Assembly: GCA_947494115.1 (NCBI GenBank)
Contig: CANLTT010000001.1
Span: forward strand, 192-64,191
DNA length: 64,000 nt
From: Candidatus Caenarcanales bacterium
GTDB taxonomy: Bacteria; Cyanobacteriota; Vampirovibrionia; Caenarcaniphilales; Caenarcanaceae
Direction of reading: 5' to 3'
Position numbers and translations under genes: made by a program. This document shows, one piece after another, positions 42,529-61,143 of the stretch (position 1 is the first letter of the stretch; the number at the start of each line of letters is the position of its first letter). The notes below the pieces were generated by a model. That model ran no database searches. It was not told where the DNA came from and was given only the letters and a program-made list of their open reading frames with translations.

Positions 42529-43572
42529 TTGAATAATACAAATAATACAGAATTGTTTTTGATTGGCATCGATTATAAGTCTAGTCCCGTGGAAGTGCGA
42601 GAGAAATTTGCTTTTTTGCCGCATGAACAAATGGGTGTTTTATGTGCTTTTAAAGCCGAAATTGGAGCTGTTGTTTGTTTAAGCACTTGCAATCGCACCG
42701 AAATTTATTTGTCTTCTAATCTATCAGCCACTGAGGTTAAAAACAAAAGTTATTCTATAATTGCTAATTTAAAAAAGCTTAATTCTAATCTGATCGCTGA
42801 ACATACAAGCTTTTTGGCTGGCCTTGAAGTTGTTAATCATCTTTTTAGGGTTTCTTCTGGCCTTGAGAGCATGATTTTAGGCGAAGGACAAATTTTAAAT
42901 CAAGTTAAAAATGCTTATAGCTCATCTCTGGCTTTTACCGATAATACTCTTAATCAATTATTTCAGAGAGCTTTGGCGGCTGGCAAAAAGGTGCGCACTT
43001 TAACCGAAATTTCTAAAGGTGCAATGTCTGTTCCATCAGCGGCTTTGCAAATTGTGCAAAAAATATTATTTCCCTCCGAATTATCCGAAAAAAATATAAT
43101 GGTTCTCGGAGCTGGCCAAATTGCCGAAATCTGTCTTGAATTACTGTCTTCTCAAGGTGCTAATCATATAACTTTAGTAAATCGCTCTCTCAATCACAAT
43201 TTGCAATTAACAAAATATGGCATAAATCAAACTATCAGCTATGCAAGCCTATTACAATATATTTATACTCAAGATTTGATTTTGGTTTGTACTGGTGCAC
43301 CTCATTATGTGATTGAAGCCAGCTTTTTTGAAAATCATTCTAAGCCAATTATTATTTGTGATTTATCTTTGCCGAGGAATGTTGATCCTGAAATCCAAAA
43401 AATTCCTAATATTAAATTACTTGATTTGGACTTTTTAAACACGGCTATTTCTCAAAATATTTCACGGCGTTCTTCTCAGATGGAGACAGCCGAAGAAATT
43501 ATAAAACTCGAAATCGATAAGTTCTTTCAGTGGAAAACCAAAGCGCAACAATTTACAAATAATTATGTCTAA
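42529..43572 (+). CDS. hemA: Glutamyl-tRNA reductase
   Basis: Contains LFLIGIDYKSSPVEVREKFAF, STCNRTEIY and a Rossmann VLGAGQIAE. Confidence 0.85.
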   Translation: MNNTNNTELFLIGIDYKSSPVEVREKFAFLPHEQMGVLCAFKAEIGAVVCLSTCNRTEIYLSSNLSATEVKNKSYSIIANLKKLNSNLIAEHTSFLAGLEVVNHLFRVSSGLESMILGEGQILNQVKNAYSSSLAFTDNTLNQLFQRALAAGKKVRTLTEISKGAMSVPSAALQIVQKILFPSELSEKNIMVLGAGQIAEICLELLSSQGANHITLVNRSLNHNLQLTKYGINQTISYASLLQYIYTQDLILVCTGAPHYVIEASFFENHSKPIIICDLSLPRNVDPEIQKIPNIKLLDLDFLNTAISQNISRRSSQMETAEEIIKLEIDKFFQWKTKAQQFTNNYV

Positions 43573-44905
43573 TTCATCTTATTTTGAACAATTACTAAAG
43601 GCTTTCAGAGAGCAAGCTAGTGGCACTTTAAAAAATGGCAAGCTCGAACGTTGGATTGGAACGGTTACAAAAATTGTGGGTTTGATGATTGAATGCCGTA
43701 TACCGGGTGCCATGATTGGCGAATTGTGCGAAATTGTAACCGAAAATGGTGATAAAAGGCTCGCAGAAGTAGTTGGTTTTAAAGAAGATAGCTCGATTTT
43801 GCTTTTACTTGGAGCTGGTGGTGGCCTTCATCAAGGAAGCAAGGTTTACCCGACTGGCAAAACTTTACAAGTTCCTGTTGGGGAGGCTATGTTGGGCCGC
43901 ATTGTTGATTCTTTGGGGCGACCTTTAGACGGAAAGCCTTTAAGCGGAATCAAAGAATGGCGTGGAATTGATGCCGATCCGCCAGAAGCATATGGAAGGC
44001 CACGCATTGACGAAGTGTTTTCAACGGGGGTCAGAGCCATTGATTCGCTTTTGACCTTAGGCGTTGGCCAAAGAATTGGTTTATTTGCTGGCTCTGGAGT
44101 GGGTAAATCGACTTTGATGGGTATGATTGCCCGTTATAGTGATGCCGAGGTTAATGTAATTGCCTTGGTTGGTGAGCGTGGTCGGGAAGTACAAGATTTT
44201 ATTGAAGCAAGCTTGGGTGAAGAAGGCCTTAAAAAGTCGGTGGTTGTAATTGCTACCTCAGACCAACCTGCCATGTTTCGCCTCAAATGCCTCTTCACCG
44301 CCACAACTATGGCTGAATATTTTAGAGATAAAAATAAAAAGGTTATGCTGATGGTTGATTCAGTAACTAGAACCGCAATGGCTGGACGTGAAGTTGGTCT
44401 ATCGGTTGGTGAGCCGCCCACTATGAAAGGCTATACTCCTTCGGTTTTTGCCATGCTACCTCGCATTTTGGAGCGGGCTGGTTTATCTAAGGCTGGCTCC
44501 ATAACCGCCATTTATAGCACCTTGGTGGATGGAGACGATTTTAATGAACCAATTGCTGATACTGTACGGGGAATTTTGGATGGCCATATTTTACTTTCCC
44601 GTGATATTGCGGCCAAAAATCATTTTCCAGCTATTAATATTTTAGGTTCTGTTAGTCGTTTATTTACAGAACTCGCTGATCAAGACCATCAAAAGGCCGC
44701 TGGTGATATCCGAAATATGATGGCTACTTATCAAAAATCTGAAGATTTAATCACAATAGGGGCTTATACCAAAGGCACCGATCCACGATTGGACAGAGCG
44801 ATTATGTTACAAGACCCTACAAATGACTTTTTAAAACAGGCAACTCATGCGCCAACGAACTTTGAAGAAACTATAAGACACTTAAAAGAAATCTCAAGTT
44901 TATAA
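43565..44905 (+). CDS. fliI: Flagellum-specific / type III secretion ATPase (FliI family)
   Basis: Walker A (GLFAGSGVGKSTLMGMIAR), a Walker B region (KVMLMVDSVTR) and typical FliI N- and C-terminal regions. Confidence 0.85.
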   Translation: MSNSSYFEQLLKAFREQASGTLKNGKLERWIGTVTKIVGLMIECRIPGAMIGELCEIVTENGDKRLAEVVGFKEDSSILLLLGAGGGLHQGSKVYPTGKTLQVPVGEAMLGRIVDSLGRPLDGKPLSGIKEWRGIDADPPEAYGRPRIDEVFSTGVRAIDSLLTLGVGQRIGLFAGSGVGKSTLMGMIARYSDAEVNVIALVGERGREVQDFIEASLGEEGLKKSVVVIATSDQPAMFRLKCLFTATTMAEYFRDKNKKVMLMVDSVTRTAMAGREVGLSVGEPPTMKGYTPSVFAMLPRILERAGLSKAGSITAIYSTLVDGDDFNEPIADTVRGILDGHILLSRDIAAKNHFPAINILGSVSRLFTELADQDHQKAAGDIRNMMATYQKSEDLITIGAYTKGTDPRLDRAIMLQDPTNDFLKQATHAPTNFEETIRHLKEISSL

Positions 44906-49658: not shown

Positions 49659-50792
49659 ATGAAAATTGCTCAAATTGCGCCATTATACGAAAGCGTTCCG
49701 CCCAAATTATATGGTGGCACCGAACGCGTCGTTTCTTATTTAACCGAAGAATTAATTAAACAAGGCCATCAAGTTACTTTATTTGCGAGCGGTGATTCTC
49801 AAACATCAGCTGAATTGTCTGCCATGGTGCCAGAGGCTTTGCGATTATGCCCAAACTGCATTGATCCCTTAGCACACCATATTCGGGCAATTGAGCTGAT
49901 TTACCGCAGAGCGCATGAATTTGATATTATACATTCGCATATCGATTATTTAAGTTTTCCGCTTGCAAGGCTTTCTCAAACGCCAACAATTACAACTTTG
50001 CATGGTCGCCTTGATATTGCCGACTTACAACCCTTGTATTCAGAATTTAGTGAAAGACCACTGGTTTCAATTTCGGATTCACAAAGAAAACCTTTAAAAT
50101 CTGTTAATTGGCTTAAAACGGTTTATCATGGTTTGCCAACTGATTTACATAATTTCTACCCGACAGCTGGCTCTTATTTAGCATTTTTGGGTCGTACTTC
50201 GCCAGAAAAAGGCTTAGACAAAGCCATCAAAATAGCCAAAGATTTTGGAATGCCTTTAAAAATAGCCGCCAAAATAGACAAAGTAGACCAAGAATATTAT
50301 GAAACCGTTTTAAAGCCTTTAATTGACAATGAGCCTTTGATTGAATTTATAGGCGAAGTGGGCGGTTCGGTTAAAGATGAATTTTTAGGAAAGGCATATG
50401 CTTTGGTTTTTCCGATTAATTGGCCAGAGCCTTTTGGTTTGGTAATGATTGAAGCCATGGCTTGCGGAACTCCAGTAATTGCTTTTAATTGCGGTTCTGT
50501 ATCAGAGATTATTAAAAATGGACAAAATGGTTTTATTGTAAAAAATGAAGAAGAAGCTTTGCAAGCCCTTAAACAAATACCTAATTTAAGCCGCAAAGCT
50601 TGCCGAGAATATTTTGAACAACATTTTTCCGCTAGCAAAATGGCGCAAAACTATTTAGAACTTTATGAAAAATTAATAAAAACAAAATATCCAAACAATG
50701 TCTCATCTGGTCAATTTAAAAAGACAGAGCCAAAACCTCCCCTAGAACTTATTGCTGGGTCAATTGAAAACAAACTAATAGAAAATATATGA
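49659..50792 (+). CDS. Glycosyltransferase family 4 (GT-B, group 1)
   Basis: The N-terminal GT4 motif (IAPLYESVPPKLYGGTERVVSYLTEELIKQGHQVTLFA) and a C-terminal EPFGLVMIEAMACGTPVIA. Confidence 0.8.
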   Translation: MKIAQIAPLYESVPPKLYGGTERVVSYLTEELIKQGHQVTLFASGDSQTSAELSAMVPEALRLCPNCIDPLAHHIRAIELIYRRAHEFDIIHSHIDYLSFPLARLSQTPTITTLHGRLDIADLQPLYSEFSERPLVSISDSQRKPLKSVNWLKTVYHGLPTDLHNFYPTAGSYLAFLGRTSPEKGLDKAIKIAKDFGMPLKIAAKIDKVDQEYYETVLKPLIDNEPLIEFIGEVGGSVKDEFLGKAYALVFPINWPEPFGLVMIEAMACGTPVIAFNCGSVSEIIKNGQNGFIVKNEEEALQALKQIPNLSRKACREYFEQHFSASKMAQNYLELYEKLIKTKYPNNVSSGQFKKTEPKPPLELIAGSIENKLIENI

Positions 50793-53017
50793 CAATTCTA
50801 AAAGACATAATTGAGTTTGAAAATCAATATTATATTTTGGCCACCTCATCCTTGGCGGAAAGTCGTGGACAAATTTTAAAGAATAATGATACCTTTGCGA
50901 TTTTTGACCGTTACGGAGACATTAATCCATATGGCGGCACTGGTGAACAAGGTTTGTATCATGAGGGAACTCGTTATTTGAATTATTTGCAATTATTTTT
51001 ATCCGCTTTTAGAGAAGAGGAAGGTCGAGATAATAGAAATTCAGCTTTTTTGGAGCGTACACGTAAAAGACCTTTATTATTAAGCTCATCAGTACAGGCG
51101 AATAATTTGTTTTTGGCGGTCAATTTGGCTAATCCAGATTTTTCTAATGACCATCAAATCGTACTCTCTCGAGATAATTTGCATATTAGTAATACAACTT
51201 TTTTATGGAATGCCGCTTTATATCGTAAACTAAGATTAAAAAACTATGATATAAACCCCTTAAAGCTTGAATTAGTGATTGAATATAGAGCTGACTTTAA
51301 AGATATTTTTGAAATTAGAGGCTTGCCAAGAGCTAATCGAGGGAATTATCAAGAGCCAATTATTAAGCAAAATGAAATTATACTTGGTTATACTGGCCTA
51401 GACAATGTTCTAAGACAAACACATCTTTGTTTTGAGCCAAGACCAAATATTTTAAACTTAAAGCAAATTAGTTTTCAGCTTGACATTCAGCCTCAAGAAG
51501 AAAAAAATATTTATCTAAGCATATTTTGTGATAGTTCCGAAAACCAAATCAAAGAAAGACTAAATTACAATTTGGCTTTAAAAGCTCAACAAGAGGTTGT
51601 GTCTAAAATAATACCCGAAATTTATACTTCTAATGAACAGTTTAATGATTGGGTTAATAGGTCCGTGGCCGATTTAGAGATGATACTTACCGAAACCCCT
51701 TTTGGACAATATCCATATGCTGGCGTTCCATGGTTTAGTACGGCCTTTGGTAGAGATGGTTTGATTACGGCTTTTGAATGCCTTTGGCTACAACCCGATA
51801 TTGCTAAAGCGGTTTTGGCCTTTTTGGCGCATTATCAAGCTCAAAGCAATATTCCTGAAAAAGATGCCGAAATTGGCAAAATACTGCATGAAATGCGCAA
51901 AGGCGAAATGGCCAATTTAAAAGAAATTCCTTTTGGGCTTTATTATGGCAGTATCGATTCAACTCCGCTTTTTATGGTTTTGGCTAGTGCTTATTATGAG
52001 CGAACTGGCGATTTAGAATTTATAAAAACTATTTGGCCAAATTTGCAAAAAGCTTTAGATTGGCTGGAAAGCTATAAAAATGATTTTGTGCATTATTCTA
52101 AACAAGCGGCTGACGGTTTAATTCAGCAAGGTTGGAAAGATTCGCACGATTCAATTTTTAAAGAAGATGGAATTACAATTAAAGGCTCAATCGCTCTTTG
52201 TGAGGTTCAAGGTTATGCATATGCGGCTAAAAAAGGCATGGCAAAATTGGCTCTAGAATTGGGTGAAGAAAATTTAGCGCAAAACTTAAATAAATCCGCT
52301 GAAGAATTTAAGGTTAAATTTGAAAAAGCCTTTTGGTTACCAGATTTAAACACATATGCTTTGGCTTTAGATGAAAATGGTGAACCTTGCAAAATTATAA
52401 GTTCTAATGCTGGGCATGTTTTGATGGCTGGTTTAGCTGAGCCAGAACGAGCCATCAAATTGGCAGAAACTCTATTCAGTCAATCTTCTTTTTCGGGCTG
52501 GGGCATTCGTACGCTGGCTAGTGGTCAGGTCAAATACAATCCAATGTCTTATCATAATGGTTCGGTTTGGCCGCATGATAATGCTTTAATTGCATATGGT
52601 TTGTCTAAGTATAACTTTAAACCGCAAACCGCTCTTCTATTGCAAGGTTTATTTGAAGCTTCTATTTCTATGGAATTGCACCGTTTGCCAGAATTATTTT
52701 GTGGTTTTAGTAAAGTTTCAGGCCAAGCTCCAACTTTATATCCAGTGGCTTGTTCTCCTCAGGCTTGGGCAACGGGAGCTGTATTTTTATTATTACAATC
52801 TTGCTTGGGCATAACCTTTAATTGCCGCCAAGACAAAATTCCGCAAATTATATTTTCAAGGCCACTTTTGCCAGAATTCTTGCCAGAGGTCAAAATCACG
52901 AATTTAACAATTGGCACAGCTTCTTTAGATTTGCTTTTGCACAGGCATTCAGAGCAAGATGTGGGTATTAATATTTTAAAAAGGGTCGGCGAAATTGAAG
53001 TTATAATCCTGAAATAA
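50789..53017 (+). CDS. Amylo-alpha-1,6-glucosidase (GDE_C) family protein, glycogen-debranching-like
   Basis: An (alpha/alpha)6-barrel glycoside hydrolase with GDE_C-like motifs (VPWFSTAFGRDGLI, SIDSTPLF, HNGSVWPHDN). It overlaps GT4 by 4 bp. Confidence 0.75.
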   Translation: MTILKDIIEFENQYYILATSSLAESRGQILKNNDTFAIFDRYGDINPYGGTGEQGLYHEGTRYLNYLQLFLSAFREEEGRDNRNSAFLERTRKRPLLLSSSVQANNLFLAVNLANPDFSNDHQIVLSRDNLHISNTTFLWNAALYRKLRLKNYDINPLKLELVIEYRADFKDIFEIRGLPRANRGNYQEPIIKQNEIILGYTGLDNVLRQTHLCFEPRPNILNLKQISFQLDIQPQEEKNIYLSIFCDSSENQIKERLNYNLALKAQQEVVSKIIPEIYTSNEQFNDWVNRSVADLEMILTETPFGQYPYAGVPWFSTAFGRDGLITAFECLWLQPDIAKAVLAFLAHYQAQSNIPEKDAEIGKILHEMRKGEMANLKEIPFGLYYGSIDSTPLFMVLASAYYERTGDLEFIKTIWPNLQKALDWLESYKNDFVHYSKQAADGLIQQGWKDSHDSIFKEDGITIKGSIALCEVQGYAYAAKKGMAKLALELGEENLAQNLNKSAEEFKVKFEKAFWLPDLNTYALALDENGEPCKIISSNAGHVLMAGLAEPERAIKLAETLFSQSSFSGWGIRTLASGQVKYNPMSYHNGSVWPHDNALIAYGLSKYNFKPQTALLLQGLFEASISMELHRLPELFCGFSKVSGQAPTLYPVACSPQAWATGAVFLLLQSCLGITFNCRQDKIPQIIFSRPLLPEFLPEVKITNLTIGTASLDLLLHRHSEQDVGINILKRVGEIEVIILK

Positions 53018-53052
53018 AATTTAAAAAGCCTATTAATATATTTTTTATAAAT
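53009..53052. repeat. Left copy of a 44-bp direct repeat (ctgaaataaaatttaaaaagcctattaatatattttttataaa) flanking the mcrBC-dcm island
   Basis: Identical to 57338-57382 apart from a 1-nt T-run indel. It begins in the last two codons of the GDE-family gene. Confidence 0.85.
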
Positions 53053-53240
53053 AAACTGGATTGAATATTTATACACTTAGAATTATATTCACCTGTCAGA
53101 GCCTTTTAGCATTACTCCAGACGAGTTTGAATTGAAGGTTTTCAAGATTTTTTAGTTTTAATTTTGTGCAATCTTGAGTACAATTACAAACAATGTGTTT
53201 TATTAGTATTCATTGTTCCCTCTAAAGAAAATGATAAAGA

Positions 53241-54839
53241 ATGAAATTTATAAGTACGCAGATAATAAAAGAGGCATATTTCGAACTGACAAATATTGAA
53301 GTCAAGAACGCAAGTATTTTTCATATTTTTCTTATTCTCAAAGGTTGCGGTATAAATGATATTACATATAAACCAGTCGAACTGATCACTGAAAAAGGTT
53401 ATTCCATTGCAAGTGATTTAAGCCTTTTATTTTCTTATTTTGAACAAAAGCCTGAAAAATACGATTTTATAAATCCCTTTTCAATGAAGACATGGGGGGC
53501 ACAAGCACCATCAGAAAATTTAAAGAAATGGGTGTCTTCAAGAATTAAAAACAACATCGTTGGCGGTGCAACAACTTGGCGAAAAATAATCAGGGAAGAC
53601 ATTTACAACAATAAAATAAAGTTTGCTAATAATTATGTCGAAGAAATTAAAAGCTTAACAATACCTAGCAATAAAATTAAGTTGTGGCCATTGGTTATTT
53701 GGTACAACCGTTTTATTAAATTTGAACGCTCTTATAGTCCTAATGAATTAATTCAAGGTTTTATTAAAGAGTTGAATATTACAGAATGCGAATTAGGAGG
53801 TTTATTCGACAAATCTGTTGTTATTGATATGAAATTTTCTGCGGAAGAGGTTAATATGGAAGAAATTAGAAATCTTATAGGCTCGCCTCCAAATACAACA
53901 AGTGAAATATGGAATAAATCAAAAGTTATCACAATCTTAGAGCCTCAATTATATTACCAATATAAAAATACAATTATGAATAATCAAAGCAATGTTTCAA
54001 TAGAAAAAATTCTTAAACTACTAAAAGATAACTTTCAAATTATTTTATCAGGACCTCCTGGTACTTCAAAATCTTATATTGCTGATATTGTTTCAAATAA
54101 GTTAATTGGGAAAGATAATTCAGACTCAATCTTGAAAATTCAGTTTCATCCTCAATATTCTTATCAAGATTTTATTGGTGGATTTATTGTTAATGGCGAT
54201 AGAGTAGAAACAAATAGGGGAGTATTTTTGAGATTCTTAGATAGAGTAAAAAGTTCTGGTAATAGAAATTTTGTTTTGATTATTGACGAGATTAATCGAG
54301 CAAATGTTGGAAGTGTTTTGGGCGAACTAATTCAATGCTTGGATAGAAATTATATGCTGAGTACACTAATAGCGGGGAAGCAAGAATTGCTGAATATACC
54401 CAAGAACCTATTTATAATAGCTACAATGAATACATCTGACAGAACTCTTGGTTCAATTGATTTTGCATTAAGAAGAAGATTTGTAGATATTTACATTGCA
54501 CCAAATGAAAGTGTTTTAACTGACACGACAAAAACGGAGAGTGGTATTTCATTAGCTGATTTATTGAAAAAAATAAATACACAATTGAAAAATACACTTA
54601 GGAATAATGAACTTGTAATTGGACAAACCGTTTTTTATAACGAAACAGTTAAATCAGGTGAGTTATATCAGTGGAATAATGAAAACCTAGAAGATTTATT
54701 TAATTATAAAATACTATCCATGGTCGAAGATTATTGTAATAGAGAAATAAATAAAATAAATGAGGTTGTTGGAGATAAGTTATCAGGACGATTAACTGGA
54801 GTTGCTTTCGTTAATGCTTTATCAGAATATATTGCATGA
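53241..54839 (+). CDS. mcrB: McrB-like GTP-dependent restriction subunit (AAA+ motor with a divergent N-terminal domain)
   Basis: McrB GTPase motifs are present: IILSGPPGTSKSYIA, LIIDEINRANVGSVLGELI and LFIIATMNTSDRTLGSIDFALRRRF. The first 250 or so aa form an unassigned domain. Confidence 0.8.
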   Translation: MKFISTQIIKEAYFELTNIEVKNASIFHIFLILKGCGINDITYKPVELITEKGYSIASDLSLLFSYFEQKPEKYDFINPFSMKTWGAQAPSENLKKWVSSRIKNNIVGGATTWRKIIREDIYNNKIKFANNYVEEIKSLTIPSNKIKLWPLVIWYNRFIKFERSYSPNELIQGFIKELNITECELGGLFDKSVVIDMKFSAEEVNMEEIRNLIGSPPNTTSEIWNKSKVITILEPQLYYQYKNTIMNNQSNVSIEKILKLLKDNFQIILSGPPGTSKSYIADIVSNKLIGKDNSDSILKIQFHPQYSYQDFIGGFIVNGDRVETNRGVFLRFLDRVKSSGNRNFVLIIDEINRANVGSVLGELIQCLDRNYMLSTLIAGKQELLNIPKNLFIIATMNTSDRTLGSIDFALRRRFVDIYIAPNESVLTDTTKTESGISLADLLKKINTQLKNTLRNNELVIGQTVFYNETVKSGELYQWNNENLEDLFNYKILSMVEDYCNREINKINEVVGDKLSGRLTGVAFVNALSEYIA

Positions 54840-56062
54840 AAATTTTAGAAATATTTGAAAATGAATCTATTTCTTTAGATGATGAAGATGCTAAAAGTCT
54901 TTTTCAGATAAAAAGTCAATCTCCCAATTTGCCATTTTCAATTCTTGACAATAAATTAGTCGCAGAAGACTATACAATAGGTGAAATACAACTAAAAAAT
55001 AAATTAATTAGAATCAAACCAAGACATAAAGTTTTGAGTTTAAATCATTATTTTGAAATGCTTTTGTATATTGATAAACTAAATTATAATTCAATAAAAT
55101 CGGTCTCATACTCGAATGAAGCATCGTTTGGTGTCAATGGGTTAATTGAAAATTTCATTACAATTTGCTTTGATTTATTAAGCTATGGTCTAACAGGATT
55201 ATTTACTACTAAAAAAATCAAAAGTTTTAAGCCAAAAGGAAAAATTGTCTTTTCAGAATTTAATAAAAAACTAATTCCAATTGAAGGTGTTCCATCATTA
55301 ATTGAAGATTATAAAATAGATAATTGTGGAAATCAAATTATTAAAACAGCGATACTTAAAATACAAGAATATATCCGACTAAGTAAAGATAATCACTTTG
55401 CAATTTTAAAGCTTTTGAGTCATTTTGAAAATGTAAACTCTTACAATAAAGATTATATAAATTTAAAATCAGAGGTACTTAATTTTTGTTCAAGCAACCC
55501 TTATTATCCTATTGCTTTAGAATATTCATTGAAAATCATCCTCGACTTCAAATTAGGCTATTCTTCAGAAGGTGGTATTCAATGGAATGCTTTTTTAGAA
55601 AATTCAAATGACACCTTTGAAAAATATATTCGTGAAATTTTAGAGCGGGAAATGGAAAATAAAATATGTAAATGGAACAAACCAAAAAAATTTGCTGAAA
55701 TCAACTGGAATAAAGAATCAGGTCAAAAAGCATTCTCTCCCGATATTATTGTAGATTTTATTGATGGAAAAGCTAGAGCTGTATTTGATATTAAAAATAA
55801 ATACTTTTCACCAGTTGAAACGAATCCAAGTGAACTCGCAAGTGTAGCCGATATTTATCAATTATTATTTTATTCTAATCAACTAAAGACAGATATTTGT
55901 GGCTTGATCTATCCATCAGGTAGCTTTTATGAGCCTATTCCCTTGAATATTATGGGAGTAGATATTAAATTTTTTCTACTCTCAATAAATATGAACGCTA
56001 ATTTTGAACAAAGAAAAAAATATTTTTTAGATAGTGTAAAATATTGTCTAAAGTATACTTAA
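54836..56062 (+). CDS. mcrC: McrC-like nuclease subunit (PD-(D/E)xK)
   Basis: Overlaps mcrB by 4 bp. The C-terminal region carries SPDIIVDF...AVFDIKNKY, a PD...(D/E)xK arrangement. Confidence 0.65.
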   Translation: MKILEIFENESISLDDEDAKSLFQIKSQSPNLPFSILDNKLVAEDYTIGEIQLKNKLIRIKPRHKVLSLNHYFEMLLYIDKLNYNSIKSVSYSNEASFGVNGLIENFITICFDLLSYGLTGLFTTKKIKSFKPKGKIVFSEFNKKLIPIEGVPSLIEDYKIDNCGNQIIKTAILKIQEYIRLSKDNHFAILKLLSHFENVNSYNKDYINLKSEVLNFCSSNPYYPIALEYSLKIILDFKLGYSSEGGIQWNAFLENSNDTFEKYIREILEREMENKICKWNKPKKFAEINWNKESGQKAFSPDIIVDFIDGKARAVFDIKNKYFSPVETNPSELASVADIYQLLFYSNQLKTDICGLIYPSGSFYEPIPLNIMGVDIKFFLLSINMNANFEQRKKYFLDSVKYCLKYT

Positions 56063-56070
56063 AAAACTAG

Positions 56071-57129
56071 ATGAAGTATAAGTTTATCGATTTATTCTGT
56101 GGCATTGGAGGTTTTCGTCAAGCCTTTGATGAACTAGATTGTGAATGTGTATTTTCTTCAGATATTGATAAGTACGCAAATATAACATACGAAGCAAATT
56201 TTGGACAAATGCCTCACGGAGACATTACACAAATCGCTGAATCTGCTATACCACAATTTGACATTTTGTTAGCAGGTTTTCCATGTCAACCTTTTAGTTA
56301 TTCTGGTCGAAATGAGGGCTTCGAAGATAAAACAAGAGGAACTTTATTTTTTGATATTGTTAGAATTATAAAACATCATAAACCTAAAATGTTTTTATTA
56401 GAGAATGTTAAAGGTTTAAAATCACACAATTCTGGAGAAACACTTAGAACAATTGAAGAAACATTGATTAAATTAGGATATCATGTTAGTTGGAGTATAA
56501 TTGATAGTTTAAAATTTGGAGTACCTCAGAAAAGAGAAAGATGGTACTGTGTCGGCTTTGATAAAGAAATTGAATTTGAATTTCCAAAAGGAAAAAATAT
56601 TATTCCAAAATTGAAGGATATAATTTCTGACGAATACAATCACGATGAAAGTTTAAAACTAACTGATTTTGAGATTTCTAGAATAGATTATCATTTTGAG
56701 TCAAAAGAAATTAGAGTTAAGCACGATAACTCAAAATATGCTCCAAATACTAAAAAAGGGAAGAATGGTATTTACTCTTTCCAAAAAGCAGATGGCTCTT
56801 TAAGATTTCATGTTGGTGATGTGGCTAAAACACAAATCCAAGAAGCTTTTTACTCATGTTTAGATACATATGCATGTACAATTATTGCGAATCGAACACC
56901 AAAGTTATGGGATTTAAAAAGAAAACTTTCAGTTAGGGAAGCAGCAAGGCTGCAAGGTTTTCCTGATGATTTTATTTTCCCTGTCTCAAAAAACCAAGCA
57001 TACAAACAATTAGGTAATTCGGTGGTTGTGCCAGTAATTAAAGCTATAGGAGAAAAAATGTTAAATAGTTATCAAAACGAGAGAAAAACTTCTAATCTTT
57101 TCTCTCAAATATCAATGGCATTTAGATGA
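56071..57129 (+). CDS. dcm: DNA (cytosine-5)-methyltransferase
   Basis: C5-MTase motifs I (FIDLFCGIGGF), IV (GFPCQPFSYSG), VI (ENVKGL) and X (QLGNSVVVPV). Confidence 0.9.
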   Translation: MKYKFIDLFCGIGGFRQAFDELDCECVFSSDIDKYANITYEANFGQMPHGDITQIAESAIPQFDILLAGFPCQPFSYSGRNEGFEDKTRGTLFFDIVRIIKHHKPKMFLLENVKGLKSHNSGETLRTIEETLIKLGYHVSWSIIDSLKFGVPQKRERWYCVGFDKEIEFEFPKGKNIIPKLKDIISDEYNHDESLKLTDFEISRIDYHFESKEIRVKHDNSKYAPNTKKGKNGIYSFQKADGSLRFHVGDVAKTQIQEAFYSCLDTYACTIIANRTPKLWDLKRKLSVREAARLQGFPDDFIFPVSKNQAYKQLGNSVVVPVIKAIGEKMLNSYQNERKTSNLFSQISMAFR

Positions 57130-57337
57130 TTCTTCAAACAGATTATTTTTAGTTTTAATAGACCGTAAAGATTTTGATAATTCATGAAAATTAAAAAGAA
57201 ACTTAAATTTACTAAAACCTTCAATTAATGAATATTTAGATCGCTTTGCTTTGAAAAATATTAGTGATATGAAAATAGAATTTGAATATAAAGGTAAGAA
57301 TAATAAATTTACAGCTCTCTCTGATATATTATTTGTG

Positions 57338-57382
57338 CTGAAATAAAATTTAAAAAGCCTATTAATATATTTTTTTATAAAG
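57338..57382. repeat. Right copy of the 44-bp direct repeat flanking the mcrBC-dcm island
   Basis: See the left copy at 53009-53052. Confidence 0.85.
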
Positions 57383-57404: not shown

Positions 57405-58388
57405 ATGATTACGGAAAAATATGATTTATTGATTATTGGAGCTGGCCTTTGCGGTTTGGCGGTTGGCAAAGGTTTAACTCGGTCAAGTGTAAATTTCAAA
57501 ATTGTCGAAAAATCACAAGCTTTTGGTGGAAGAGCCTCTACAAGACGTTTATTTGGTCAGCCTATTGATCACGGTGCGCAGTATTTTACAATTAGTAATC
57601 CAAAGTTTTTAGATTGGATTGAAGAACTTGAAGAAGAAGATATTGTCAGACCGTGGGTTAATCGGTTGCATATTTGGAATGGGCAAAAATTTTATTTAGA
57701 AGACAAGCCTTTAACCCGCTATATATGCCCCGAAGGAATGACCGTTATGTCTAAAAAATTGGCAAGTGTTCTTCCAGTCTCTCGAGAGCTTAAAATTACT
57801 AAAGCTAGTTTTAAAAACAATTTATGGCATTTGTCTACCAATGAGCTTAGAGAAATATATGCCGACAAAATAATTTGCACTGCACCTTTGCCGCAAAGCC
57901 TAGAATTATTTGAAAACTATCTTGAAGAAAGCCAAAAAGAAAAACTTAAAAATATTATTTATGATGCTTGTTTATGCGGCATTTTTGTTTATCCTTTGGC
58001 TTTAAAACCGTTCTGGAAGGGCATTTTTTGGAATAATGGAAATATTATTTCTTGGTTGGCTAATGATTCTTCTAAAAGAGATGAACCAACTAATACCGTC
58101 TTAATTGCTCATTGCAAGCCAGATTTTTCGAGACAATATTTTGAGACAGCCGAAAATAAAGTTTTAAATTTAATTTTAGAAGAATTGTCTCAGGCCATAC
58201 CAGAACTAGACGGCAAACCGCAAGAAATGCAATTAAAAAAATGGCTTTATGCCCAACCTCAAAATTTATTAGGACAAAGCTATTTAAAAGTAAATGAAAA
58301 CTTATATTTAACTGGCGATTGGTGCTTGAATCCTCGCATGGAAGGAGCTTTTTTGACTGGCCTAAACTTAGCTGAGCAAATATTTTAA
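57405..58388 (+). CDS. NAD(P)/FAD-dependent oxidoreductase (amine-oxidase/renalase-like)
   Basis: Has an N-terminal FAD motif (YDLLIIGAGLCGLAVG...VEKSQAFGGRAST) and a C-terminal GDW...EGAFLTG. Confidence 0.6.
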   Translation: MITEKYDLLIIGAGLCGLAVGKGLTRSSVNFKIVEKSQAFGGRASTRRLFGQPIDHGAQYFTISNPKFLDWIEELEEEDIVRPWVNRLHIWNGQKFYLEDKPLTRYICPEGMTVMSKKLASVLPVSRELKITKASFKNNLWHLSTNELREIYADKIICTAPLPQSLELFENYLEESQKEKLKNIIYDACLCGIFVYPLALKPFWKGIFWNNGNIISWLANDSSKRDEPTNTVLIAHCKPDFSRQYFETAENKVLNLILEELSQAIPELDGKPQEMQLKKWLYAQPQNLLGQSYLKVNENLYLTGDWCLNPRMEGAFLTGLNLAEQIF

Positions 58389-58407: not shown

Positions 58408-59124
58408 TTGGGTATAAATAAATTAATGCTTATCAAAAAAAAACAATTGCCACAAGCTTCTAGCCAAGTTGTTTCTTCTACTGGTGATGAATCTGTGAAG
58501 GTGGTTGAAAATAATGATAAAGAAATTGCCCAAAAAGAAGCCCAAAATATTTTAAATCAAGCTCAACAAGAAGCCGATTTAATTTTGCAACAAGCCGCGA
58601 GCGAAGCAGAAAATATTTTAAATTCGGCCGAAAACAGAGTAAAAGAAGCGATTGAAAAAACGATGGCGCAAAAAATGCAAAAGCTAAATGAATTAGAAGA
58701 ACAAGCTGTTGATGAATTGAGGGTTTTTGGTGATTTCAAAAAAGAAATTTTGCAAGACAGTAAAGATTCGATTTTGAATGTTTCAATTGAATTGGCTAGT
58801 CGCATTATTCACCAAAAAGTTAAAGAAAATCCAAATATTCTCGAAAAACTATTCCAAGAAGCGATTCAAGAGGTTTTAGATAATTCTTCGACCGAAGCTG
58901 GCAAAATTGCAATTATTTTAAGTATAAACCCCGAAGATGCCGAAATCGCTCAAAAATTTGCCGAAAGAATGGAGCAAAATAGCCGCCTAGAAATTACCTT
59001 AAAAGAAGATTCTAAGATTTCGCAAGGAAGTTGTGTGATTGAAAGCCCATCTGGAATTTTAGATTGGAATTTCGCTTCTCAGCTTGAACTTTTTAAAGAA
59101 AGAATGCTGTCTTCTAATTTTTAG
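58408..59124 (+). CDS. FliH-like flagellar assembly / T3SS stator protein (tentative)
   Basis: A Q/E-rich helical N-terminus and a C-terminal EITLKEDSKISQGSCVIESPSGILDWNFASQLE resembling the FliH C-terminus (GGC.IETD.G.IDASLE). Confidence 0.45.
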   Translation: MGINKLMLIKKKQLPQASSQVVSSTGDESVKVVENNDKEIAQKEAQNILNQAQQEADLILQQAASEAENILNSAENRVKEAIEKTMAQKMQKLNELEEQAVDELRVFGDFKKEILQDSKDSILNVSIELASRIIHQKVKENPNILEKLFQEAIQEVLDNSSTEAGKIAIILSINPEDAEIAQKFAERMEQNSRLEITLKEDSKISQGSCVIESPSGILDWNFASQLELFKERMLSSNF

Positions 59125-59196: not shown

Positions 59197-61143
59197 ATGA
59201 GCCAAAGCGATTTTAGCCTAAAAGGAGATCTTCTTAAAGATTTAAACTTTATTGAAAACAAAGAATGGCTAATCACTAATGGCCTTGGTGGCTACGCCTC
59301 TGGAAGCGTCTCTGGAATTTTAAATCGCAAATATCACGGCTTATTAATTGCTTGCCAAGATGGCCTGAAAGCCGACAGAAAACTATTAGTTAGTAAATTT
59401 GAAGAAATTATTCAATACAAAAACAAAAACTATAATTTAGCGGCCAATCGCTGGGATAATTCATCAGTTAAGCCAGATGGTTATTTGTATTTAAAAGAAT
59501 TCAGCTTGGAAGGCACTACGCCAGTGTGGACATATAAACTAGATGATTGTATTTTGCAAAAGCGTGTCTGGATGAAAGATGGTGAAAATACAACTTATAT
59601 TAGTTATTATTTGCTGAAAGCCTCAGAGCCGATCAATATAAAAATTGCTTGTTTTATTAATTATAGAAACCATCATGAATTAACCACCAATTTAATAAAT
59701 TATCAAATAGAAGCTTGCGAATATGGTTGTAGCGTAAAAACCGAAATACCTTTTTATATTTTGTCGCAAGACGCTCATCACAAGCTTGATAATACTTGGT
59801 ATCAAAACTATAAATTGGCGATCGAAGAAAAGCGCGGTTATGACTTTTTGGATAATAATTGCAAAGTAATTGAATTTGAGCGTGATTTAGCCGCCAGTAA
59901 ATTATTAACTATTATTGCAACCACTAATGAAAAAGCCTCATTGAATGGAATAGAAGCTTATAGCGAAAAAATAGATTCTCAAATTGAAATTTTAGATCAT
60001 AGCTGGATAAGTGCTCATCAAGTGCCAAGTTGGATTAAACAATTGATTTTAACCGCTGAGCAATTTATCGTAAAAAGTCCGTCTCAAACTATTATTGCTG
60101 GTTATCCGTGGTTTGATGATTGGTCTAGAGATACTTTAATAAGCTTAGAAGGTCTTTGTAAGCCAGAAGTGATGAAGCAAGTTTTATTAAATTATAAAGA
60201 ATTATTTCAGAATGGTCTTTTGCCAACCCGATTGCAAGAGCCTTTACAATTTAACAATGCTGATTCTGCTCTTTGGTATTTTATTGCTCTCAAAAGCTAT
60301 TTAGACCAAACCCAAGACCTAGAGCTTTTAAGAGATTTATTTATTGATTTGGTTAAAACAATTGATTGCTATTTTAAAGGCACAGAACATAATATTAAAG
60401 TCTCTCCAGATGATGGCTTATTAATGGCTGGTGATGACGGTTTTGCTTTAACTTGGATGGATGCAAAATGTCAAAATCAGGTTTTTACTCCTCGTAGAGG
60501 CAAGCCAGTCGAAATTAATGCTCTTTGGTATAATGCCTTGCTTTGTATGGCTGATTGGGCTGGTGATTTAGAAATTGAACAAACTAAAGAAAACTATCTC
60601 GAAATGGCGCAAAAAGTTAGAGTGAGTTTTCAGAAATTTTGGAATAATGATTTGAATTGCTTGTATGATGTCATTGATACGCCCTCTGGTTCGCCAGATC
60701 CAAGTATAAGACCGAATCAAATTTTTGCAATTTCTTTACCTTATTCACCGCTCACACAACCGCAAAAAGAATATATATTAAAAGTTTGTGAAGCTCATCT
60801 TTTAACACCCTTTGGCTTGCGAACTTTGTCTTTTGAAGACCCTGAATATATTGGTTATTACGGCCAAGATTCTTTATATTTGCGAGATTCAGCTTACCAT
60901 CAAGGAACTGTGTGGCCTTGGCTTTTAGGACTTTTTGTAATTGCGCACTATAAGGTCTTTAAAGACAAAGAAAAAGCTTTGCAATTTTTTAATGCTTTGC
61001 CAGAGGCTCTGAAGAAGTTTGCCATTGGCAATTTAGGCGAAATTTTTGACGGAAATAGTCCTTTTTGCCCCGAAGGTTGTTTAGCTCAAGCTTGGTCGGT
61101 CGCTGAAATTTTACGAGCTTATAAATTCGTAGTATTAAATTAA
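59197..61143 (+). CDS. Second amylo-alpha-1,6-glucosidase (GDE) family protein
   Basis: A GDE_N-like N-terminus (WLITNGLGGYASGSVSGILNRKYHGLLIA) and a GDE_C barrel (GYPWFDDWSRDTLISLEG, GTVWPWLLG). Confidence 0.75.
   Translation: MSQSDFSLKGDLLKDLNFIENKEWLITNGLGGYASGSVSGILNRKYHGLLIACQDGLKADRKLLVSKFEEIIQYKNKNYNLAANRWDNSSVKPDGYLYLKEFSLEGTTPVWTYKLDDCILQKRVWMKDGENTTYISYYLLKASEPINIKIACFINYRNHHELTTNLINYQIEACEYGCSVKTEIPFYILSQDAHHKLDNTWYQNYKLAIEEKRGYDFLDNNCKVIEFERDLAASKLLTIIATTNEKASLNGIEAYSEKIDSQIEILDHSWISAHQVPSWIKQLILTAEQFIVKSPSQTIIAGYPWFDDWSRDTLISLEGLCKPEVMKQVLLNYKELFQNGLLPTRLQEPLQFNNADSALWYFIALKSYLDQTQDLELLRDLFIDLVKTIDCYFKGTEHNIKVSPDDGLLMAGDDGFALTWMDAKCQNQVFTPRRGKPVEINALWYNALLCMADWAGDLEIEQTKENYLEMAQKVRVSFQKFWNNDLNCLYDVIDTPSGSPDPSIRPNQIFAISLPYSPLTQPQKEYILKVCEAHLLTPFGLRTLSFEDPEYIGYYGQDSLYLRDSAYHQGTVWPWLLGLFVIAHYKVFKDKEKALQFFNALPEALKKFAIGNLGEIFDGNSPFCPEGCLAQAWSVAEILRAYKFVVLN

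Follow-up and report, generated by a model that had tools for sequence, protein, structure and literature searches.

A three-gene islet in a 64-kb stretch of metagenomic DNA (the window) is probably a horizontally acquired, methylase-linked McrBC restriction-modification (RM) cassette that inserted with a long target duplication and works in a LlaJI-like manner, a reading we hold with moderate confidence. The host is an uncultured Caenarcaniphilales-like melainabacterium. Between two direct repeats lie 4,286 nt (53052-57337), in which the only open reading frames (ORFs) with family matches are three RM genes. These encode the McrB-like, McrC-like and C5 methyltransferase products that an earlier note on this DNA had named (Pfam AAA_5, PF10117 and PF00145). 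By Pfam and sequence, the islet sits between a 742-aa glycoside hydrolase gene with GDE_N_bis and GDE_C domains (50789-53017; all genes and spacers given here lie on the forward strand) and a gene of the flavin amine oxidase family (57405-58388). GC content is 0.284 in the insert versus 0.347 elsewhere in the window.

We divided the insert into three parts by comparison with related contigs. Its conserved core runs from the mcrB ribosome-binding site to 1 nt past the dcm stop codon (53222-57130). The left spacer (53052-53221) is non-coding and contains a promoter-like site upstream of mcrB (53061-53089). The right spacer (57131-57337) holds a degenerate frame of 81 codons that has one internal stop and reads into the repeat. 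Both spacers are specific to this insert. The degenerate frame may be the remnant of a donor-side gene; tblastn found no match for it to GDE C-termini or to any other locus compared. It includes a 25-codon ORF (57269-57346), the tiny ORF that the earlier note had reported before the right repeat copy. The ORF is there, but its ending in LK* is trivial because those codons belong to the repeat.

The repeat itself is well defined. Its exact part, returned by a repeat search, spans 38 nt (53009-53046 and 57338-57375), with the copies 4,329 nt apart. Lengthened across a T6/T7 indel and the ATAAA beyond it, the repeat covers 43 nt on the left (53009-53051, the T6 version) and 44 nt on the right (57338-57381, the T7 version). 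Identity is 43/44 nt and the T indel is the sole difference; the previously proposed ends, 53052 and 57382, reach one mismatched base (t versus g) too far. As claimed, the left copy opens with CTG AAA TAA, which are the two final codons (L, K) and the stop of the GDE-family gene, and because the repeat begins with these 9 nt, that gene remains intact. When both flanks were aligned, as the note had suggested, similarity was confined to the repeat. The 207 nt preceding each copy align no better than shuffles, which disposes of a longer ancient duplication.

Within the 64-kb window, a 24-nt core of the repeat occurs twice when up to three mismatches are allowed, against 0 occurrences expected from 100 shuffles. 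There is no third copy in the window, and across the 184 loci compared the core is present only in contigs of the window's own population. Its length (more than 30 bp) and just two copies within 64 kb are what is looked for in an RM insertion. Folding found neither dyad symmetry nor a stable hairpin in the repeat, and an attC-, dif- or terminator-like structure was rejected for want of a stable fold or a terminator call.

The window comes from a metagenome-assembled contig, and aberrant ends occur on some scaffolds from its project. Nonetheless, we think it very improbable that assembly created the repeat or the junctions, or that AT-rich DNA produced the repeat by chance. The shuffles speak against chance, and both junctions were independently assembled in several samples: the left in ERZ19025701 and ERZ19025674, the right in ERZ19025673, ERZ19025675, ERZ19025701 and ERZ19025708. 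In Logan contigs from SRR7054681, the breaks fall precisely on the repeat, where a genuine 38-nt repeat should cause them at k=31.

How the islet arrived is best judged from a second copy. In another Caenarcaniphilales-like genome (contigs L175-L177), the operon matches 53222-57130 at 97.7% nucleotide identity, and a shorter contig, L178, matches 53234-56601 at 97.9%. Homology between the window and L175 ends sharply at both edges of the core, in unrelated contexts. The L175 copy is bracketed by a 203-nt duplication (192/203 identical) of the upstream gene's 3' end. Neither repeat nor spacers are shared and the target genes differ, so the two insertions have no att core in common.

These features place the islet in the class of RM insertions with long target duplication delineated by Furuta, Abe & Kobayashi (2010), whose criteria are R and M genes inside the insert, an insert below 20 kb and a repeat above 30 bp (PMC2853133). 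The assignment follows on all three counts, since both R and M homologues are situated inside the inserted segment, the segment and repeat have the required lengths, and there is no other mobile element. Like the published cases, the window has R and M genes alone between long direct repeats, without a transposase or integrase, and its 43-44-bp repeats resemble the 46-47-bp examples listed there (PMC2853133). Repeat length and sequence also vary among insertions of one unit, here 44 bp in the window and 203 bp in L175. RM units between long repeats are known to amplify (PMC2853133), and the repeats in the window may likewise support amplification. The published examples had been recognised by comparing genomes in pairs, whereas ours, with no empty site found, is drawn from anatomy and comparison. 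It differs further in its host, an uncultured melainabacterium, in its methylase-linked McrBC cargo and in offering two independent insertions of one near-identical unit, each at a gene 3' end.

The earlier note had left two origins open for the repeats, a duplicated target or att sites. The L175 copy, with its different duplication in a different gene, favours the first. Under the second, the repeats would be attL and attR of a non-autonomous element mobilised in trans by an integrase encoded elsewhere; the element would bring along a GDE 3' end of its own, with which integration would rebuild the gene. Such cis-mobilisable, att-flanked elements (CIMEs) are known, for example, at the 3' end of fda in Streptococcus thermophilus. 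Their repeats are att sites that do not vary and belong to a known family of ICE integrases, and these elements can carry RM genes. The resemblance is real: direct repeats enclose a small, integrase-less island at a housekeeping gene's 3' end, and one of them overlaps the gene end and preserves its reading frame. Two further contigs fit as well, L005 with the junction expected of an excised circle and L003 with a left spacer that meets unrelated DNA exactly at the repeat's terminal T-run.

We nevertheless judge a CIME-like origin quite unlikely. As had been noted, Pfam finds no integrase among the island ORFs. No mobility domain appeared in 10 ORFs that were scanned from 35 to 63 kb or in a second set of 8 ORFs, with Phage_integrase and Resolvase domains both absent from the scanned set; the neighbouring genes scanned are housekeeping genes, and the 64-kb window contains no tRNA gene or Rfam match. 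Unlike CIMEs, near-identical cassettes here use different repeats at different genes, with unshared spacers, and have no known cognate integrase. The lack of a dyad or stable hairpin in the repeat also tells against att sites, and variable, long repeats are the hallmark by which Furuta et al. separate their class from site-specific events (PMC2853133). Carrier phages and plasmids were considered separately: a viral-contig scan gave no match, and blastn against phage and plasmid collections matched only the generic methylase core.

For insertion with long target duplication, we envisage the following course. A fragment of ~4.29 kb, comprising the operon with left and right foreign flanks of 170 nt and 207 nt, would have entered directly downstream of the GDE-family gene, a step that would require neither integrase nor transposase. 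A target of ~44 nt, including the last two GDE codons and stop, would have been copied to either side, sparing the host gene. Afterwards, the two repeats could support unequal crossing-over or excision, yielding tandem or circular forms. The molecular steps of such insertion are, to our knowledge, not established in the literature; the usual proposals are staggered breaks that are then filled in, or a circle that enters by one crossover. Nobusato et al. (2000) reportedly also dealt with RM-gene insertion of this kind.

In a reconstructed empty site, the amine oxidase gene would begin 57 nt past the GDE stop codon. No such site was found among same-population contigs that reach this position, all of which carry the island, and because of this we infer the insertion rather than observe it. 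Searching GTDB genomes and JGI metagenomes with the GDE protein gave no relative between about 56% and ~100% identity. The earlier description of a discrete, recently acquired islet stands for its first part, given the low GC, the insert's own flanks and the 97.7% copy elsewhere, which mark a discrete, foreign three-gene unit; for a recent date, the pointers are repeat identity and composition only.

Several contigs end at or run across the repeat. L184 starts within it. L005 reads from the last 16 nt of the right spacer (57322-57337) through the repeat into the left spacer, a hint of a tandem arrangement or a circle. This junction depends on 16 nt at a contig end and could be an assembly artefact, because other scaffolds from that project likewise depart from the window sequence at their ends. 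In L003, the 115-nt foreign flank joined to the left spacer matches neither the window nor any locus compared.

The cassette is a tightly packed, co-oriented operon. Its first gene encodes a 532-aa McrB-like GTPase (53241-54839; AAA_5 PF07728, E 1.6e-18). The AAA+ module has Walker A (GPPGTSKS, residues 271-278), Walker B (LIIDEINRAN, 346-355), the McrB-like NxxD signature (MNTSDRT, 396-402) and RRRF (411-414), the full set expected of such a GTPase, and residues 251-422 match the PDB McrB chains 6hz4 and 6ut6 at about 1e-32. Directly downstream and overlapping by 4 nt, the second gene encodes a 408-aa McrC-like nuclease (54836-56062; PF10117 over residues 47-360, E 1.1e-23) with the PD...D-x-K motif of a PD-(D/E)xK partner (SPDIIV, 301-306; FDIKNK, 317-322). 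The third, dcm, encodes a 352-aa C5 cytosine DNA methyltransferase (56071-57129; PF00145, E 1.5e-98) with motifs I, IV (GFPCQPFS), VI (ENV), VIII and X intact. Catalytic motifs are thus intact in all three products. Among solved enzymes, M.HhaI is closest to the methylase, although the two differ in the target-recognition region (about 186-285); that region also has no tblastn match in plasmids, so no target was deduced.

The McrB N-terminal domain, residues 1 to ~230, stands apart. The earlier note had left the N-termini of both McrB and McrC unassigned. This holds for McrB, which has no Pfam family there even at E<=10, and not for McrC, which PF10117 covers from residue 47. Comparison with solved structures returned no significant match and only weak winged-helix similarity. 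The domain is not SRA-like, YTH, EVE or B3, and it does not resemble E. coli McrB-N. Plasmid matches to this region reach only 30-32% identity, and none was identified as LlaJI. In PADLOC, residues 91-223 gave a partial match to the N-terminal part of the PtuA1 profile.

The order mcrB-mcrC-dcm is kept in every homologous context that is fully seen. Order, 4-nt overlap and 8-nt gap recur in five contexts at 70-98% identity and in plasmid pLS2 at 21-37%; linkage of the two R genes to the C5 methylase was found in L173, L175, L181, L182 and pLS2 besides the window. Each cassette has a single PF00145 gene (window, L173, L175, L181 and pLS2), in place of the two methylases of LlaJI. Close cassettes conserve the McrB N-terminal domain jointly with the target-recognition region of the methylase; against pLS2 both fall to 21-22%, while the catalytic cores keep 35-37% identity. 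Synonymous and non-synonymous changes between the window and L175 copies number 26:7, 17:8 and 16:7 for the three genes. Flanking repeats were not found at the homologous cassettes in L173, L181 and L182.

LlaJI provides the nearest model for function. There, an McrBC-type enzyme paired with m5C methylases restricts unmethylated DNA (PMC1459862, PMC12707154). Like LlaJI (Lactococcus pNP40, with an H. pylori homologue), the window cassette combines McrB-like and McrC-like subunits with an m5C methylase in a co-oriented operon, and its McrB-like subunit has a separate N-terminal domain, here a predicted DNA reader. It has neither the B3-fold reader of LlaJI nor the two methylases that serve an asymmetric site there, and the gene order, as previously pointed out, is R1-R2-M with one methylase instead of M1-M2-R1-R2. 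By analogy, a single methylase suggests a symmetric recognition site. The analogy is a reasonable one. Linkage to the methylase persists down to 21-37% identity. In a census by Bell et al. (2024), McrBC systems were prevalently associated with methylases, and this association is probably ancestral (PMC11090510). Clades in that census likewise link NxxD-type McrB contextually to a DNA methyltransferase, but the authors leave the description of these systems for later, and neither the reader domain of the window nor its mode of mobility is described there (PMC11090510).

The nuclease might instead be a conventional, modification-dependent Type IV McrBC, and the adjacent methylase not its protective partner but an orphan or epigenetic enzyme, a decoy against other restriction systems or the remnant of a Type II system whose lost endonuclease is the degenerate frame at 57131-57337. 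The cassette does share with E. coli McrBC the NxxD AAA+ GTPase, the PF10117 McrC and overlapping genes; motor and nuclease find their best sequence matches in E. coli McrB and McrC, albeit with scores that fall well short of the NCBIfam equivalog cut-offs (119 against 637 bits and 40 against 338 bits). A reader domain without proven specificity and the decayed ORF after the methylase suit this alternative too. We consider it unlikely, if a more serious contender than att sites. Unlike E. coli McrBC, the window operon has an unrelated N-terminal domain and includes a cognate-looking m5C methylase, in a tight linkage kept from 98% to 21-37% identity and across phyla. Reader domain and target-recognition region diverge together, purifying selection acts on all three genes, which moved as one unit with homology that runs no further than the dcm stop, and a methyl-dependent nuclease beside an m5C methylase risks self-cleavage. 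The absence of an SRA-like, YTH or EVE domain points the same way.

By analogy, the cassette is most likely a LlaJI-like RM system that has a single methylase and whose reader domain is new. Indirect support for restriction of unmethylated DNA, with the host protected by the methylase, comes from the conserved linkage and from the parallel divergence of the N-terminal domain and the target-recognition region. In such a system, the C5 methylase would mark a short, probably palindromic site in host DNA, and the N-terminal domain of McrB, helical and partly winged-helix-like, would read the same site when unmethylated. The GTP-driven McrB ring would then recruit McrC, whose PD-(D/E)xK site would cut foreign DNA.

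Part of what sets this case apart is its cargo, a methylase-linked McrBC unit; insertion of RM genes that duplicates a long target, though poorly understood, and methylase-linked McrBC are themselves known already. Although methylase-linked McrBC systems appear to be common, we know of none but LlaJI that has been studied. This cassette, a compact variant with three genes and one methylase, would suit experiments on whether reader swaps generally re-target McrBC motors from modified to unmodified DNA. Two insertions of a near-identical unit, each with its own long target duplication at a gene 3' end and with a possible tandem or circular junction besides, are unusually clean material for this route of RM mobility, and such insertions in an uncultured lineage are not described in the literature cited here. 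If only the ordinary reading is true, this is one more RM islet with no wider consequence. A bolder proposal, which we put forward as speculative, is that the metagenomes capture, in a natural population, the proposed life cycle of a minimal RM unit lacking its own recombinase (two insertions, the tandem or circular junction of L005 and the left end joined elsewhere in L003) and that the ~230-aa N-terminal domain reads a palindromic site in its unmethylated state and is new at the level of fold. The reader domains form a small, well-conserved family for which structure prediction is confident and no homologue has been solved.

We characterized the segment between the direct repeats first by its genes, which are those proposed in the earlier note. 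An mcrB-like gene (53241-54839; AAA_5, E 1.6e-18) overlaps an mcrC-like gene (54836-56062; PF10117 McrC, E 1.1e-23) by 4 nt, and dcm (56071-57129; PF00145 C5 methyltransferase, E 1.5e-98) follows in the same orientation after an 8-nt gap. Walker A, Walker B, NxxD and arginine motifs are all intact in the McrB-like protein, whose residues 251-422 match solved E. coli McrB chains at ~1e-32; the PD...DxK motif of the McrC-like protein and motifs I, IV, VI, VIII and X of the methylase are likewise intact. GC content is 0.284 in the insert versus 0.347 in the remaining window. The 170 nt to the left of the cassette (53052-53221) are non-coding and include a promoter-like site. The 207 nt to its right (57131-57337) contain a decayed 81-codon frame (57101-57346) that starts at the end of dcm, reaches into the right repeat and is broken by a single internal stop. 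This frame may be the remnant of a gene carried in with the inserted fragment; no homologue was detectable in the fetched material. Elsewhere the window encodes SMC, PEP carboxylase, BioU, DnaG, RecG and a FliI-type ATPase. Among named relatives, RecG is closest to Candidatus Caenarcaniphilales MAGs (58-59% identity), so the host is an uncultured melainabacterium (Vampirovibrionia).

A repeat search of the window recovered an exact 38-nt direct repeat at 53009-53046 and 57338-57375. Reading on across a run of six Ts in the left copy and seven in the right, plus five bases, extends the copies to 43 nt (53009-53051) and 44 nt (57338-57381). The repeat previously described at both island edges is therefore real, with its ends drawn one base too far, as the next bases are t versus g. 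Its 24-nt core occurs twice in the window with up to 3 mismatches allowed (zero expected) and, among 184 fetched loci, is confined to contigs of the window population. When the two flanks were aligned, similarity did not extend past the repeats, and the 207 nt preceding each copy scored no higher than shuffled sequence. The left copy opens with CTG AAA TAA, agreeing with the description of its start in the final two codons (L K) and stop of the 742-aa glycogen-debranching-family gene (GDE_N_bis/GDE_C). The small ORF noted at the right copy (57269-57346) does end in LK*, an ending without separate meaning because the same repeat supplies those codons. Deletion of the insert and one repeat copy would place the amine oxidase start 57 nt downstream of the GDE stop codon, a plausible original operon junction.

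Through a cluster-mate of the McrB protein we reached four contigs with a near-identical cassette; two JGI samples and two SRA runs supplied them. Three of them (L175-L177) hold all three genes at 97.7% nucleotide identity to the window; the fourth and shorter one (L178) is 97.9% identical to window 53234-56601 and ends within dcm. Homology in L175-L177 is limited to window 53222-57130 and ends abruptly at both edges, 19 nt ahead of the mcrB start codon on the left and 1 nt beyond the dcm stop on the right. As judged from these edges, the conserved mobile core is a 3.9-kb operon. The surroundings in L175 are unrelated to those in the window and comprise an Mrr_cat/ParA-like gene, an AAA_15/21 ATPase, a HepT/nucleotidyltransferase pair, an enolase and a topoisomerase. 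Part of this neighbourhood (L175:5060-9111), beside the cassette, is a small defence island in which the Mrr_cat domain is fused to a ParA/CbiA-like ATPase and accompanied by the AAA_15/AAA_21 ATPase and the nucleotidyltransferase/HepT toxin-antitoxin pair. We infer that the L175 host is likewise Caenarcaniphilales-like because its enolase is 81% identical to that of named MAGs; its third-position GC is lower than that of the window. The L175 cassette is flanked by another direct repeat, of 203 nt (192/203 identical; L175 37-239 and 4346-4548), formed by the 3' end of the upstream membrane-protein gene. A stop codon arises at the junction in the upstream copy, and the downstream copy runs on four codons into native sequence. 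The two insertions are thus unlike in target, repeat length and foreign spacers, and both lie at a gene 3' end.

Kobayashi and colleagues have reported 'insertion with long target duplication' for Type I-IV restriction-modification (RM) genes, giving 46-47 bp among the repeat lengths, and held it distinct from site-specific integration (PMC2853133). The window shares with this class R and M genes inside the repeats, an insert of <20 kb, a repeat of >30 bp and the lack of any other mobile element; the exception is the published empty-site comparison. Given that the same unit occupies differing targets, with differing repeats and spacers, in the window and L175, the pattern reads as the signature of this mode of insertion. 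The earlier note had offered att sites or a duplicated target. Site-specific att sites are disfavoured because there is no integrase, the two insertions have no core in common and we found no dyad or hairpin in the repeat. The duplicated target, by comparison, is favoured by the different 203-nt repeat in L175, and the proposal of a foreign defence islet was right in outline. The absence of an integrase, also claimed before, extends to the neighbours: no integrase, transposase or resolvase domain was found in the ORFs scanned between 35 and 63 kb. These are housekeeping genes encoding ETF, spermidine synthase, a GT4 glycosyltransferase, two GDE-family enzymes, amine oxidase and a desaturase; the window yielded no tRNA gene or Rfam match.

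More distant cassettes share ~76-77% (L181 and L182) and 70% (L173) identity with that of the window, and we found no flanking repeats around these three. The cassette adjoins a tRNA fragment in L173 and an integrase fragment in L182, and therefore the unit is also carried in larger islands. The L173 fragment resembles a tRNA 3' end (GGTTCGAGCCC, reverse strand; L173:9760-9810) and lies immediately upstream of mcrB; downstream of the cassette, L173:14223-18312 contains a second C5 methylase and a resolvase. This arrangement suggests that the L173 cassette is carried within a larger tRNA-associated island.

We then sought an uninterrupted allele, a comparison proposed with the original description. 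The GDE protein (50789-53017) had no relative between ~56% and ~100% identity in one-genome-per-species GTDB or JGI metagenomes, that is, none above ~56% outside its own population. Exact-protein look-up recovered near-identical contigs from five ENA 'GROS21-1' metagenomes and one SRA run. No empty allele emerged among these same-population contigs, with every one that reaches the site (L002, L183, L086, L087, L090 and L091) occupied. As these assemblies are independent, mis-assembly is ruled out for both junctions. Logan contigs, built at k=31, are broken precisely at the repeat, L001 ending at 53038 and L089 starting at 57338, as expected of a true 38-nt repeat.

Two contig ends hint at ongoing rearrangement. 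The first 16 nt of L005 (ERZ19025708) equal window 57322-57337, the end of the right spacer, and are followed by the repeat and then the left spacer, in the six-T version. This junction hints, weakly, at a tandem duplication or an excised circle arising by repeat-repeat recombination; amplification is known for RM units between long repeats (PMC2853133). The combined 16 + 38 = 54 nt would fit the geometry of a k=55 graph if hybrid reads exist. In L003 (ERZ19025673), 115 nt (L003:1-115) are fused to the left spacer (window 53041 onwards) exactly at the T-run with which the repeat ends. This flank matched nothing in the window or any fetched locus, and on its reverse strand reads as a ribosome-binding site and gene start (MFPFDASF...). 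It could stem from another insertion site, from a carrier replicon or from a chimeric assembly. Two GROS21-1 scaffolds also leave window sequence after a perfect match, L091:1900-2047 inside a FliH-like gene (~58927) and L184:~445-865 inside the amine oxidase (after residue 140, ~57825); these divergent ends may be population structural variants or assembly chimeras. Because of such aberrant ends, we grade the L005 and L003 evidence as weak and treat both as leads only.

The three genes appear to act as one selected unit. Synonymous to non-synonymous codon changes between the 97.7% copies number 26:7, 17:8 and 16:7, gene by gene. The mcrB-mcrC-dcm order is retained in L173, L175, L181 and L182, and also on Fructilactobacillus sanfranciscensis plasmid pLS2 at 21-37% identity; a Staphylococcus epidermidis plasmid carries dcm, an IS element and then the ATPase and McrC-like genes. 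Among the close cassettes, conservation of the McrB N-terminal domain (70-97%) goes hand in hand with that of the methylase target-recognition region (83-97%). Both fall to 21-22% in pLS2, where the ATPase and methylase cores stand at 35-37%. Such joint divergence, in a single distant comparison, would be expected if the N-terminal domain and the methylase read one DNA site.

The R1 subunit of the lactococcal LlaJI system is McrB-like and has a B3 reader; together with an McrC-like R2 it restricts GACGC/GCGTC when unmethylated, and host protection comes from two m5C methylases (PMC1459862; PMC12707154). A census of McrBC systems found methylase association prevalent and probably ancestral, and deferred its treatment (PMC11090510). 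The LlaJI precedent and the linked-unit evidence favour, by analogy, an RM mode of action over the rival reading, in which the nuclease is a methyl-dependent Type IV enzyme and the methylase next to it is unrelated. In the RM mode, the methylase would mark a DNA site, probably symmetric because the methylase is single; the McrB N-terminal domain would recognize that site when unmarked, and cutting would fall to McrC and the GTPase ring. The LlaJI comparison drawn earlier holds for this logic in outline; membership fails because the cassette has neither the B3 domain nor the two-methylase layout. The nearest solved relative of the methylase is M.HhaI (7e-67), from which its variable region differs; that region also had no match in a plasmid collection, so the target cannot be inferred. 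An McrB homologue of 84% identity lies downstream of a different defence cluster (L172:1-9798), composed of a DUF2357/PDDEXK_7 protein, HTH regulators, two adjacent C5 methylase genes and a 1114-aa RNase_H_2/AAA_30/AAA_12 helicase. The L172 contig ends before the region where a methylase downstream of mcrC could show.

The McrB N-terminal domain (residues 1-~230) is strongly conserved, with 18 invariant columns across 70 full-length homologues. As the earlier note held, it belongs to no assigned family: Pfam returned no match with the threshold relaxed to E<=10. When 1.84 billion cluster representatives were searched exhaustively, only 54 relatives emerged, nearly all McrB fusions of 520-545 aa. 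From that alignment AlphaFold2 produced a confident model (pLDDT 92.7, pTM 0.91), for which Foldseek gave no match below E 4. With the Pfam and Foldseek searches null, we rejected the SRA-like E. coli McrB-N, YTH, EVE and LlaJI.R1 B3 domains as identities. PADLOC matched residues 91-223 (window 53511-53909) to N-terminal positions 71-211 of the 627-position PtuA1 (Septu) profile (E 9.8e-12), and the representative search also gave two proteins of 623-638 aa; the domain may be common to another defence ATPase family. A more novel reading, in which the proposed RM life cycle is caught here in a natural population and the reader has a new fold, strikes us as unlikely.

Lastly, the neighbourhood of the insertion has features of its own. 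The FliI/SctN-family ATPase is encoded at 43565-44905, and a FliH/ATP-synthase-B-like protein (58408-59124) lies between the amine oxidase and a second glycogen-debranching gene, an odd setting for a flagellar or type III export component. The two GDE-family genes, of GDE_N_bis type (50789-53017) and GDE_N/GDE_C type (59197-61143), are unlike each other and lie 6 kb apart on the same strand.
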